Shown: positions 54,110 through 57,897 of the stretch, in pieces | Layout: the number at the start of each line of letters is the position of its first letter | How positions within the stretch are numbered: position 1 is the first letter of the stretch | NCBI GenBank assembly: GCA_934168205.1 | Contig: CAKPMX010000001.1 | Span: 510,603 to 574,602 of the forward strand | DNA: 64,000 nucleotides | Direction: 5' to 3' | DNA from: an uncultured Bacilli bacterium | GTDB lineage: Bacteria > Bacillota_I > Bacilli_A > RF39 > UBA660 | Made by a program: the position numbers and the translations under genes | The notes under the pieces: generated by a model | The model's database searches: none | Told to the model about the DNA's origin: nothing | What the model saw: the letters and a program-made list of their open reading frames with translations, nothing else

Positions 54110-55021
54110 ATGTTATATATAACTGGTGATACTCACGGAGATTTTTATAGATTTGGCCATTTAGGATTAAATGAAGATGATATTATGATTATCTTAGGTG
54201 ATGTGGGTATTAATTATTATTTAGATGAATATGATAAAAAGTTAAAGGAAAGATTAAAAAGATATAATTTTAAATTTTTCTGTATTCAAGGTAATCATGA
54301 AGAAAGACCAGAAAATATTTCAAGTTATCATGAAGTAGAAATGTTTGGTGGTAAAGTATTCATAGAAGATGAATATCCTAATTTAATATTTGCTAAAAAT
54401 GGAGAACTTTATAATGTTGATGGTAAAAGTATCTTAGTAATAGGTGGGGCATATTCTATTGATAAAGATTATAGAATCAATAAAGGATATCCTTGGTTCA
54501 AAGATGAACAATTAACTGAACAAGAGAGACTAAATATACTGGACAAGTATTCTGGTAAACATGTTGATATAATTTTGTCTCATACTTGTCCATTAAGATA
54601 TGAACCTAAAGAAAGCTTTAAATTAAGTTTGCCACAAATTGCAGTAGATAAATCTATGGAATATTTTCTTAATGAAGTAGAGCAAAAAGTAGATTATGAT
54701 AAATGGTATTGTGGACATTATCATTTAGAAAAAATTGTGGACAAGTTAGAGTTTATGTTTGGAAGAATTAAAAGTGTTGACACAGGAGAATTTATTCCTA
54801 AATATGATTTCCATAATAGCTACGAAATAGTTAGAGATGCATGTAGTCAAAAAGATTATAAATATTGTCCTGAATGTAAAGGAGATAATATAATTATAGA
54901 AAAAGGTGAAGGACACAATATTAATGGTTTAGATTTTATTGCTATCATTTGTAATGATTGTAAAAAAGTTTATGGATTTAATGATGTTAATTATAAACCT
55001 AATTGTCCTAAAGAATTATAA
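54110..55021 (+). CDS. calcineurin-like metallophosphoesterase with a C-terminal Cys4 zinc ribbon
   Basis: ATG 54110 (RBS GAGAGGTGGAAAG); metallophos motifs GDTHGD, GDVG and GNHE; C-terminus CPECKG...CNDCKK. Confidence 0.7.
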   Translation: MLYITGDTHGDFYRFGHLGLNEDDIMIILGDVGINYYLDEYDKKLKERLKRYNFKFFCIQGNHEERPENISSYHEVEMFGGKVFIEDEYPNLIFAKNGELYNVDGKSILVIGGAYSIDKDYRINKGYPWFKDEQLTEQERLNILDKYSGKHVDIILSHTCPLRYEPKESFKLSLPQIAVDKSMEYFLNEVEQKVDYDKWYCGHYHLEKIVDKLEFMFGRIKSVDTGEFIPKYDFHNSYEIVRDACSQKDYKYCPECKGDNIIIEKGEGHNINGLDFIAIICNDCKKVYGFNDVNYKPNCPKEL

Positions 55022-55029
55022 GGAATTTA

Positions 55030-55056
55030 AGAGTCTATTAAAATAGGCTCTTTTTG
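55030..55056 (+). terminator. intrinsic terminator (copy A of a repeated element)
   Basis: AGAGTCTA-ttaaaa-TAGGCTCT followed by TTTT. Confidence 0.5.
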
Positions 55057-55142
55057 CATGTAAATATTTCAGAAATTTAAATTTTATGTTAAAATATTTA
55101 CTAATTATTGAAGACTTTAATTAATGGAAGTAGGTAGTATTT

Positions 55143-57860
55143 ATGGATGAAGCATTACAATATATTGATGCAAAAATAGTTGATACAAATAATACAATAA
55201 ACAAAATTATCGAAGACAATATTGATGATAGAGATTATATGTCTAAAAATATATTAAGTAATCTTAGGTACTTAGTTGAATATTGCTTTTTTAGAGTTTA
55301 TATTACGGATAAGGTGCAAGGATATATAAAATATAATCATGAAAATAATAAACAATCAATTAAATATATGAAAAGTTGTGCTAATATGAGAGAGTTAAGA
55401 GCATTACATGGATTTTTACAAATATCAACTTCTCATTCACTGCCAAATGGCGATGGTTCATCTAGAGTAATGATTAAATACCTAAGTTATTTAATTGAAT
55501 TAAAAAATTTTATGTATAAAAAGTATGGAATTATTATCTTGGATAATTTATATTCCTTTCCCCTTAATATTGAAAAAAATATGGAGGAGTATTACCAACA
55601 AATTTCCAATCATATAAAAACAGTAGCCTTTAATAAAAATAAAGGTGTTATAGCTAATCAGTATTATGTTAGAAAAGTAAAACCAATTATTATTGATGGA
55701 AATGTATTCTATGAAGTTACATTAACTGATGCTACTGATTATATCAATAAATTTAATAGAATTGTAGTATATTCGAAAGAAAAGATAATAGATAATTATG
55801 CAATAAAAATTTCAAGTGTTAATCGAAAAATAAAGTTATTTGAAAGAAATGTTAATATTAAAATTATAGATAATTATAAGATTGCCATAAGACCTTGTGA
55901 ATTGAATAATTATGCAAAAATATTTGGATTACAGTATAAAATATCTTCAAAATATGGAGAATATAATTTAATTATGAAATATTTAATGTATCACAGATGT
56001 AATTTATTGGATATTGTTGAATTAGACAATACTACCTATTCAAATGTCAAACATGAATTAGTAAATGGAGCTAATACCCATTATATTATCGATTTAATTG
56101 ATGAATCAAGGAAAATTATTCTAAATAATAAACCAGGTAGCAATATTTTAAAGTATTTTTTATTTCAGCTTAATAATCTAGTTATAAGATCACAGTTGAA
56201 TGGTGATAAAAATTATAAACTTTCCGATTTGTATTTAAGTTATGGTTCGATACCATTTGATGAAATGCCTTATGCATCTTCTTTGCAAAATCATAAAGTT
56301 GATATAAACGAACTACTACAATGTATAGATAATAATGGAAGAGATGATGAATTATTATCCAGAAGACTTCATTATAATTCAGACAGCTTAGGAAATATAT
56401 ATAATAAAATAGATGAGATTGATTTACCACTTAATGTAATGGATGAATTAATTGCAAGTTTTAATTCAAAATTATATTTACCTTTACATGAAGGAAGAAA
56501 AATTATAAAAGATGATAAATATATATATGTAAAGGGATATGAATTGGAAACTATATCAATTATTGAAAAATTAAATGAATTATCATGTAGTGGCTATGAA
56601 GACTATAGTAATATTTTTATGGGATGGGAAGCTTTGACTGATTATGTTTTTACTGATCCAAAAAAATATGAAATATGTAAGAATGTTTTTATAAATTCAA
56701 AAGTAGCATTACTATATGGATCAGCAGGATGTGGTAAAACAGAAACAATTAAAATTATTTCGAGTATATTCCGATATAGAAACATTATCTTTTTAGCAAA
56801 AACAAATCCTGCTGTAGAAAATTTAAAAAGGCGAATTAGAACTGATAATTCAAATTTTACATTTATGACAATTGACAAATATAAAGTTAACCCATTACAA
56901 TGCGATTTATTAGTTATTGATGAATGTAGTACTGTTGATAATTATGATATGAATAAAGTTTTATGCCATAATGATAAATATGACTTATTATTATTGGTAG
57001 GTGATATATATCAAATTGAATCAATTAAATTTGGAAATTGGTTTAAATTTGCCAAAGAGCTGTTACAACCTCAATGTATAAATGAATTAGATGGTACCTT
57101 TCGTACAAAAAATCCAGTTTTATTAGATTTATGGACCAAAGTTAGAAATATTGATGAAGATATTATAGAATATTTATCAGATTATGATATGTCTGATACA
57201 TTAAATAAAAACATTTTCAATAGATGCAGTGATGATGAAATAATATTATGTTTAAATTATGATGGACCATACGGAATTAATAGTATAAATAAATATTTGC
57301 AAACTGATAATCCTAATCAGATTTATGAATGGGGTATAAATTCGTATAAGGTGGGAGATCCGGTTTTATTTAATGATTTAAATAGATTTTATCCAGTTTT
57401 ATATAATAATTTAAAAGGGAGAATAGTAAATATTAATAAAACAGATGAAAAAATATTCTTTGATATTTTAGTAGATATTGTAATTTCAGATATGATGGCT
57501 TCATTTGTGGGACTAGATATAATAGGAAGAGATACAGAAGAAACAACTATTAGATTTAGTGTTAATTCAAATTATGATGACGATATAGAAGATAAAAAAG
57601 ACTGTGTAGTTCCATTTGCAGTAGCATATGCTACATCAATTCATAAGTCTCAAGGATTGGAATACGAATCCGTTAAAGTTGTTTTAAATGATGAAATTGG
57701 TGATGTTATTACTCATAATATTTTCTATACTGCAATAACAAGAGCAAAAGAAAAAATAAAAATTTATTGGACACCTGAGTGCATGAATAAAGTTGTAGGA
57801 AATTTTTCTATAAAAAATAATGATGACATTAATATAATTAAAAATAAAATTAGTATTTAA
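55143..57860 (+). CDS. large protein with a C-terminal SF1B RecD/Dda-like helicase domain (AAA_30 plus UvrD_C_2) and an N-terminal domain of about 500 aa with unknown function
   Basis: 905 aa; Walker A LLYGSAGCGKTET, Walker B LLVIDECS, motif III LLLVGDIYQ, SH3-like NLKGRIVNI, motif V/VI AYATSIHKSQGLEYESV. Confidence 0.65.
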   Translation: MDEALQYIDAKIVDTNNTINKIIEDNIDDRDYMSKNILSNLRYLVEYCFFRVYITDKVQGYIKYNHENNKQSIKYMKSCANMRELRALHGFLQISTSHSLPNGDGSSRVMIKYLSYLIELKNFMYKKYGIIILDNLYSFPLNIEKNMEEYYQQISNHIKTVAFNKNKGVIANQYYVRKVKPIIIDGNVFYEVTLTDATDYINKFNRIVVYSKEKIIDNYAIKISSVNRKIKLFERNVNIKIIDNYKIAIRPCELNNYAKIFGLQYKISSKYGEYNLIMKYLMYHRCNLLDIVELDNTTYSNVKHELVNGANTHYIIDLIDESRKIILNNKPGSNILKYFLFQLNNLVIRSQLNGDKNYKLSDLYLSYGSIPFDEMPYASSLQNHKVDINELLQCIDNNGRDDELLSRRLHYNSDSLGNIYNKIDEIDLPLNVMDELIASFNSKLYLPLHEGRKIIKDDKYIYVKGYELETISIIEKLNELSCSGYEDYSNIFMGWEALTDYVFTDPKKYEICKNVFINSKVALLYGSAGCGKTETIKIISSIFRYRNIIFLAKTNPAVENLKRRIRTDNSNFTFMTIDKYKVNPLQCDLLVIDECSTVDNYDMNKVLCHNDKYDLLLLVGDIYQIESIKFGNWFKFAKELLQPQCINELDGTFRTKNPVLLDLWTKVRNIDEDIIEYLSDYDMSDTLNKNIFNRCSDDEIILCLNYDGPYGINSINKYLQTDNPNQIYEWGINSYKVGDPVLFNDLNRFYPVLYNNLKGRIVNINKTDEKIFFDILVDIVISDMMASFVGLDIIGRDTEETTIRFSVNSNYDDDIEDKKDCVVPFAVAYATSIHKSQGLEYESVKVVLNDEIGDVITHNIFYTAITRAKEKIKIYWTPECMNKVVGNFSIKNNDDINIIKNKISI

Positions 57861-57869
57861 AGTTTTGTT

Positions 57870-57897
57870 AGAGTCTATTAAATGTAGGCTCTTTTCA
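57870..57897 (+). terminator. intrinsic terminator (copy B of the repeated element)
   Basis: AGAGTCTA-ttaaatg-TAGGCTCT followed by TTTT. Confidence 0.5.

Follow-up and report, generated by a model that had tools for sequence, protein, structure and literature searches.

A PDC-S53 family helicase as probable stand-alone cargo in a phosphoesterase-anchored slot of a mobile element from an uncultured Bacilli bacterium

In a 64,000-nucleotide (nt) stretch of contig CAKPMX010000001.1 from an uncultured Bacilli bacterium (assembly GCA_934168205.1, positions 510,603 to 574,602; hereafter the window), a gene for a calcineurin-like metallophosphoesterase is followed by one for a helicase of 905 amino acids (aa). 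A reading made from the sequence alone had proposed the two as an anti-phage module, and both open reading frames (ORFs) lie where it placed them (Table 1). However, the phosphoesterase and the helicase do not form a two-gene defence system. We propose that the helicase belongs to the family PDC-S53 and constitutes a stand-alone cassette in the variable cargo slot of a mobile element, with the phosphoesterase being a backbone gene of that element, and we give this reading a probability of roughly 0.7.

The two genes proved to be separable from either side. Among 80 fetched loci homologous to the helicase, tblastn placed a full-length phosphoesterase in only two (L001 and L002; L numbers denote comparison loci), which harbour the two closest helicases (75% identity), share the amidase fragment with the window, and show collinearity with it; 77 of the 80 lacked the phosphoesterase. 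From the other side, the helicase was present in none of 21 phosphoesterase loci drawn from eight clusters. Joint occurrence of phosphoesterase and helicase was confined to one element lineage (L001, L002, and L105), and the pairing was broken both at 95% phosphoesterase identity, where a BglII-type endonuclease and no helicase follows (L098), and at 80% helicase identity, where the helicase is located in a capsule-synthesis locus that has no phosphoesterase (L106). Unbiased clustering of 758 ORFs flanking the helicases in the 80 loci exposed no conserved neighbour family; the largest cluster was HsdR (13 of 80 loci), and others that recurred were large serine recombinases (10), N6 methylases (8), HTH-Fic proteins (7), N4/N6 methylases (6), and integrases (5). 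Immediate upstream neighbours were likewise heterogeneous. The idea that divergent phosphoesterases had been overlooked by tblastn was rejected, given that a Pfam scan of 72 upstream neighbours gave Metallophos once. The sequence-only reading had itself named a failure of the two genes to co-occur elsewhere as evidence against its module, and on these counts the module does not stand.

The hairpins in this region point the same way. Two copies of one terminator-like hairpin had been described as bracketing the gene pair, and the copies are indeed there (-10.9 and -10.6 kcal/mol for copies 1 and 2, z about -3.5 to -3.8). Copy 1 equals copy 2 minus 1 nt, and the repeat was found by a regular expression, not by a mismatch-only search. 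However, copy 1, with its T-run and the promoter-like site that follows, lies between the phosphoesterase and the helicase, and the hairpins therefore bracket the helicase alone. These intergenic features are sequence predictions, and the total of promoter-like sites in the region was not above shuffled expectation; together, the hairpin and the weak promoter-like site argue tentatively for independent transcription of the helicase.

A related locus, L099, preserves the site without the cassette. Its chromosomal neighbourhood is 71% identical to that of the window over 4.3 kb, with genes for SpoIID, phospholipase C, Abi_2, and an HtrA-like protease, and behind the stop codon of its phosphoesterase come a single hairpin and, immediately next, a 99-aa HTH_36 gene. 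In blastn and in a base-level alignment, positions 6912-6949 of L099 align to both hairpin regions of the window, so that the window helicase forms a 2.8-kb cassette (~55056-57858) between duplicated hairpins. Judged from this alignment, the helicase is a discrete, independently inserted cassette and L099 is its empty site, and the duplication of the hairpin around the cassette explains the repeat that had been noticed earlier. L001 and L100 have the hairpin to the right of the cargo but not to its left. The pairing of a filled with an empty site lends strong contextual support to PDC-S53 as stand-alone mobile cargo. That the two proteins act jointly as a nuclease or phosphodiesterase plus motor, like GajA with GajB, is by contrast highly improbable, considering that their co-occurrence is confined to one element lineage, that a terminator hairpin separates the genes, that the empty site shows independent insertion of the helicase, and that no PADLOC model matches the phosphoesterase.

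With the false lead of a new phosphoesterase-helicase system removed, the helicase emerges as a new member of an already catalogued candidate family. In the PADLOC comparison that had been suggested for it, the protein matched PDC-S53 (PDLC05035) over its full length (E = 0 and 1039 bits, with aa 7-903 aligned to positions 3-894 of the 900 in the profile). The PDC models represent 145 "phage defence candidate" systems from a guilt-by-embedding screen, the candidates having been drawn from genes that lie inside BREX, DISARM, and type I restriction-modification (R-M) systems (Payne et al., bioRxiv 10.1101/2024.01.29.577857). PDC-S53 is named neither in the text and supplements of that study nor in other literature found. 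At the family level, PDC-S53 and the window protein are the same, in that both are single genes with no conserved partner and are frequently associated with type I R-M or other defence genes. We found at least 166 full-length homologues, with relatives of ~900 aa extending down to ~40% identity, and at least 598 species-representative genomes from many phyla that encode a PDC-S53-type helicase.

The C-terminal ~400 aa had been read as a complete superfamily 1B (SF1B) helicase, and our searches bear this out. Pfam assigned AAA_30, AAA_19, Viral_helicase1, and UvrD_C_2 to aa ~505-905, and the core matched RecD2 in NCBIfam (6e-35) as well as RecD2 (3e1s), RecD (1w36_D), and Pif1 in the PDB. Walker A, Walker B, motif III (GDxxQ), and motifs V and VI were all found, as was SIHKSQG, with G526, A528, G531, K532, D593, E594, G620, D621, Q624, S832, H834, K835, Q837, G838, T863, A864, T866, and R867 invariant in an alignment of 32 sequences. 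While these motifs are common to RecD2, Dda, Pif1, and the RecD helicase of type IV-D CRISPR systems (PADLOC typeIV_RecD, 4.8e-16), the window protein scores far under the RecD2 equivalog cut-off (120 bits versus 500) and differs from all of these in its 500-aa N-terminal module, which only PDC-S53 has and which is always attached there. Family membership suggests that the helicase would translocate 5′ to 3′ on single-stranded DNA. The resemblance to Nhi and Gabija that had been pointed out holds in concept only, namely the coupling of an SF1 helicase to an effector in anti-phage defence. GajB matches were weak and local (E of 4.6e-7 or weaker, aa 517-580 only), no GajA/OLD partner adjoins the helicase, none of the 11 PADLOC families matched bears the Nhi name, and the predicted N-terminal fold, which combines HEPN-like and OB domains, is neither PD-(D/E)xK nor another recognisable DNA nuclease.

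The N-terminal half is an obligate part of the helicase, as follows from its placement and the uniform length of the proteins: a profile of the N-terminal 505 aa alone retrieved 1,207 cluster representatives, and nearly all complete ones were 895-935 aa long with the module at the N-terminus. The earlier observation that these ~500 aa match nothing familiar was upheld. Pfam returned nothing for 15 N-terminal halves at E values up to 10, HEPN families included, a PDB profile search matched aa 500-876 only and none of the N-terminal half, and hhalign comparisons with AbiU2-HEPN and DUF4145 sequences gave probabilities below 1%. A structure predicted with confidence for the N-terminal half from 15 sequences (predicted local distance difference test 82, predicted template modelling score 0.74) comprises a helical bundle, a five-stranded beta domain, and a helical domain with small beta elements (Table 1). 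LsoA, Csm6, and RnlA stood further down in the list of likenesses to this model. Foldseek against the PDB gave no significant match, only weak ones to SSB. Neither a relaxase (HUH) domain nor a PD-(D/E)xK fold was found in the model, and the identity as a conjugative relaxase-helicase (TraA/MobA) that the sequence-only reading had put forward as the refutation of its own proposal is ruled out by the lack of a relaxase fold in this half. Within the bundle, R42 and E46 were invariant in the 32-sequence alignment, as were S97, H98, R108, K112, and Y113. The N-terminal 500 aa thereby gain their first domain map, with HEPN-like, OB, and helical parts, and the seven residues just named form a short list for mutagenesis.

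The surroundings of the cassette, from ~53.99 kb to the window end, are best explained as a whole as the left part of an integrative mobile element, one of a family that has a large serine recombinase and probably inserts into an Amidase_3 (CwlD-like) gene at the motif NHINAGG. GC content falls from ~0.30 to ~0.24 at ~54 kb, and the amidase fragment beside this transition covers only profile positions 1-79 of 174 (Pfam Amidase_3, 1.3e-17). Amidase fragments ending at the same SNHINAGG motif, at the left end of related elements, were present in many hosts, namely in L027 (11476-11802), L090-L093, L095 (4251-4553), L099 (5550-5864), L100 (5543-5845), L102, and L105 (8583-8858). They are 44-58% identical to that of the window, and their upstream contexts differ even where the element is identical (L090-L093), which together indicate that the fragments are host DNA. 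In L105, the same element, with a 99%-identical helicase, is located in another chromosomal context and again beside an amidase fragment. From the common end point we infer site-specific integration inside the conserved amidase motif. Genes near the amidase sites include SpoIID, Spo0A, and YabP, and it is possible, by analogy with skin, that this is an intervening element in a sporulation gene.

The phosphoesterase loci have a recurrent layout. An N-terminal Amidase_3 fragment of ~100 aa is followed by optional cargo, the phosphoesterase, variable cargo, HTH_36, ParA/ParB, sortase-anchored adhesins, and the large serine recombinase. The optional cargo 5′ of the phosphoesterase consisted of an AbiLi/AriA-like ATPase (9e-42), a HipA-like kinase (PDC-M03A, 3e-19), or AbiU2-HEPN. 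The slot on its other side contained a YobI ATPase after an 82%-identical phosphoesterase copy and a 437-aa gene with RnlA/RnlB after an 81%-identical one; other loci had Cas9-Cas1-Cas2, a Dcm methylase with a 374-aa gene, or small ORFs and ParA/ParB, and in L099 the slot was empty. As judged from this gene order, the phosphoesterase belongs to the conserved backbone of the element, close to its left end, and marks a variable cargo slot. The HTH_36 protein has a short form of 97-99 aa, in the window, L098 (7674-7967), L099 (6975-7274), L100 (9807-10106), and L105, and a long form of 252-255 aa, in L001 (10781-11539) and L095 (9631-10398). The recurrence of the short form in related elements marks it as a stable variant rather than a truncation peculiar to the window.

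Known defence hotspots with conserved core genes on their flanks include the P2/P4 hotspots and hotspot 5 of the SXT integrative and conjugative element. The window element is like these in having a conserved anchor gene, here the phosphoesterase, and a variable slot, but unlike them in its carrier, a serine-recombinase element in an amidase gene of low-GC gut Bacillota. No description of this element family came up, although no literature search was aimed at it. The phosphoesterase-anchored slot represents a practical place to seek further defence genes in poorly studied gut Bacillota.

Regarding the phosphoesterase itself, the assignment as a calcineurin-like enzyme with a C-terminal Cys4 zinc ribbon was corroborated by Pfam (Metallophos, 2e-10) and PHROGs (phrog_1649 "metallo-phosphoesterase", 2e-32) and by the invariance of its motifs. 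All five calcineurin-like metal-binding or catalytic motifs, DxH, GDxx(D/G), GNH(D/E), H, and GHxH, are present as GDTH, LGDxG, GNHE, SHTCP, and GHYH, which are invariant in an alignment of 20 homologues together with the CPxC...CxxC pattern of the zinc ribbon. The ORF is open from 54095, and we set the start codon at 54110 because homologues begin with MIYITGD. Homologues numbered 5,887, and the protein would act independently of the helicase.

Two loci extend the range of contexts in which phosphoesterase sequences occur. In L027 (10961-12319), the region 3′ of a 46%-identical helicase contains a truncated resolvase fragment, the amidase fragment, and an ORF of 139 aa. This ORF matches the phosphoesterase at its C-terminus and only in the zinc ribbon (aa 246-298, 47% identity), so that the ribbon is not confined to proteins with the phosphoesterase domain, and the order of the fragments suggests a tandem stack of elements at one site. 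In L101 (2529-12927), a phosphoesterase relative lies in a conjugative element with a MobL relaxase, DpnD-PcfM, DUF4313, a VirD4-type (VirD4/TraG) coupling protein, and a serine recombinase. Located a few genes 3′ of the relaxase, it might be a leading-region gene.

Whether the cassette serves defence is a separate question, and we lean moderately towards a defence or exclusion function for the family. What can be retained of the original anti-phage proposal is the helicase as a candidate on a defence island, supported by its PDC-S53 membership and by a slot that otherwise contains Cas9, R-M, RnlAB, or YobI; the partnership with the phosphoesterase cannot. Several points weigh against our interpretation. 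The window does not reach the right end of the element, where the recombinase and the rest of the amidase lie. The searchable literature yielded no experimental report on any PDC-S53 member, so that the defence role, well supported by context as it is, is drawn from that source alone. The canonical HEPN motif Rx4-6H is lacking in the window protein, which has R42-YLVE-Y47 (RYLVEY); of the 32 relatives, 12 have H at position 47, 15 have Y, and five have D, A, or F, and RN[LF]VEH is found in only 12. Lastly, the helicase matches phrog_325 "Dda-like helicase" (1.5e-48), and on the Lactiplantibacillus plasmid NZ_CP137848 the gene follows a replication initiator and a DUF536 gene.

The two latter points favour a Dda/RecD-like accessory helicase for replication, maintenance, or transfer of the element, not an immune gene, as do the full-length members found in two temperate phages and about six plasmids and the position of the window helicase just before an HTH_36 gene that resembles replication initiators. 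Nonetheless, siblings with the same backbone (L098, L099, and L100) do without the helicase, which is hence dispensable for the element, and the contents of the slot elsewhere are the defence genes listed above. Moreover, in both phages the gene lies apart from the replication module, is oppositely transcribed, and has R-M genes beside it, while other members occur in non-mobile contexts, such as the capsule locus, and neighbours are enriched for type I R-M genes. We therefore consider this main rival, a replication or maintenance helicase of mobile elements, unlikely.

Since the motif histidine is absent, we also keep the probability of RNase activity low: it is doubtful at best that the bundle of the window protein works as an RNase, and we refer to it, from the predicted model, as HEPN-like, not filing it as a HEPN RNase. 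PDC-S53 may comprise two versions, one having the motif histidine and one lacking it, with RYLVEY typical of the window's clade. In lacking this histidine and any match to a HEPN Pfam profile, the window protein differs from HEPN RNase effectors such as MNT-HEPN toxins, Csm6/Csx1, and RnlA/LsoA. Eukaryotic Schlafen proteins, which are RNase-helicase proteins, offer an analogy. DARNA likewise provides an analogy only, and was rejected as a relative because it is not a helicase fusion (bioRxiv 10.64898/2026.02.22.705581).

Under the stand-alone interpretation, the PDC-S53 protein would act alone, as an obligate fusion of HEPN-like bundle, OB fold, helical domain, and SF1B helicase. The OB fold and SF1B motor would engage single-stranded or replicating foreign DNA, along which the motor would move 5′ to 3′ using ATP, and the N-terminal bundle, with R42/E46, S97-H98, and R108/K112/Y113, would provide an effector or a regulatory switch. 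The outcome could be direct disruption of phage replication or an RNA-directed abortive response. A bolder version, for which the odds are slightly less than even, is that PDC-S53 is a genuine single-protein immune system, with HEPN-like and OB domains wired to an SF1B motor, and that the phosphoesterase-anchored slot is a hitherto undescribed defence hotspot in those serine-recombinase elements of gut Bacillota that target an amidase gene. PDC-S53 would then follow a logic similar to that of Schlafens and DARNA in a different protein family, and new systems could be harvested from the slot, for example, the 344-aa ORF of the window, the 437-aa gene 5′ of RnlA, and the 374-aa gene after Dcm.

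The two phages, Erysipelothrix phage phi1605 and Terrisporobacter phage TPDSL_ph1, encode helicases ~35% identical to that of the window, each with a 278-aa gene located 18 nt 5′ (L081 6149-6985 and L082 6089-6925, respectively) and a small HTH gene after the helicase. The two 278-aa proteins share 83% identity, and their match in PADLOC was to an LmuA model, in its N-terminal part (2.8e-12); they had no Pfam match and were absent from all 80 genome loci. We rejected them as counterparts of the phosphoesterase, to which they are unrelated in sequence. The 278-aa gene and the helicase may represent a phage-borne two-gene variant.

Downstream of the cassette, the type III R-M system that had been recognised in the island was confirmed as an adjacent Mod/Res pair by PADLOC (MTase_III, 2.3e-150; REase_III, 1.9e-125) and Pfam (N6_N4_Mtase and ResIII). 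The Mod and Res ORFs overlap by 41 nt (61243-61283) when Res is read from its first possible start, compared with 8 nt in L105, and on this basis Res in the window probably starts further downstream. The 344-aa ORF between HTH_36 and Mod had no match in Pfam, PADLOC, PHROGs, or NCBIfam, and was kept only in the near-identical element L105 (341 aa). One could envisage that the helicase and the genes downstream of it (HTH_36 fragment, 344-aa ORF, and type III R-M) make up one larger system, inasmuch as gene order is the same in L105 and helicases accompany some R-M-like systems. However, L105 is the same element and not an independent case, the HTH_36 gene is a backbone gene, as its presence at the empty site shows, the 344-aa ORF was found in none of the 80 helicase loci, and only four of these had Mod/Res matches, which were distant (22-40% identity over part of the query). 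Such a larger system is very unlikely, and the helicase is better regarded as a cassette of its own.

Table 1. Positions of the mobile-element features and flanking amidase fragment in the window.
Feature	Coordinates	Strand	Remarks
Truncated Amidase_3 (CwlD-like) gene fragment	53608..54000	+	130 aa, ends ...SNHINAGG|QDA*; host-side left junction (attL side)
Metallophosphoesterase, C-terminal Cys4 zinc ribbon	54110..55021	+	303 aa; element backbone gene, anchors cargo slot
Hairpin copy 1 and T-run	55030..55051	+	Predicted phosphoesterase terminator; left boundary of helicase cassette
Promoter-like site (TTCAGA, 16 nt, TG-TAAAAT)	55068..55095	+	5′ of helicase; weak, consensus-level match
PDC-S53 family helicase, whole gene	55143..57860	+	905 aa
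HEPN-like helical bundle (predicted), aa 1-160	55143..55622	+	Invariant R30, R42, E46, S97, H98, R108, K112, Y113
OB-fold-like five-stranded beta domain (predicted), aa 173-247	55659..55883	+	
Helical domain with small beta elements (predicted), aa 251-500	55893..56642	+	
SF1B (RecD2/Dda/Pif1-type) helicase core, aa 505-905	56655..57857	+	
Hairpin copy 2 and T-run	57870..57892	+	Right boundary of helicase cassette; equals single hairpin of L099 empty site
HTH_36 protein resembling replication-initiator N-terminus	57923..58219	+	98 aa; element backbone gene, kept at empty site
344-aa ORF	58392..59426	+	Further cargo; without family match
Type III R-M system	59556..63930	+	Mod 59556-61283, Res 61243-63930; separate defence cargo

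Finally, we noted two features at the margins of the element. Between a 396-aa gene and the amidase fragment lies a non-coding stretch of ~400 nt (53172-53600) with two hairpins, of which one is bidirectional and terminator-like (53172-53196) and the other is at 53218-53251; the stretch had no Rfam or tRNA match, and the same was true of the whole window. At the other end, the gene after Res in L105 (18932-22718) has a product that exceeds 1,500 aa and includes a SMEK_N domain, which probably shows what lies just past the end of the window.

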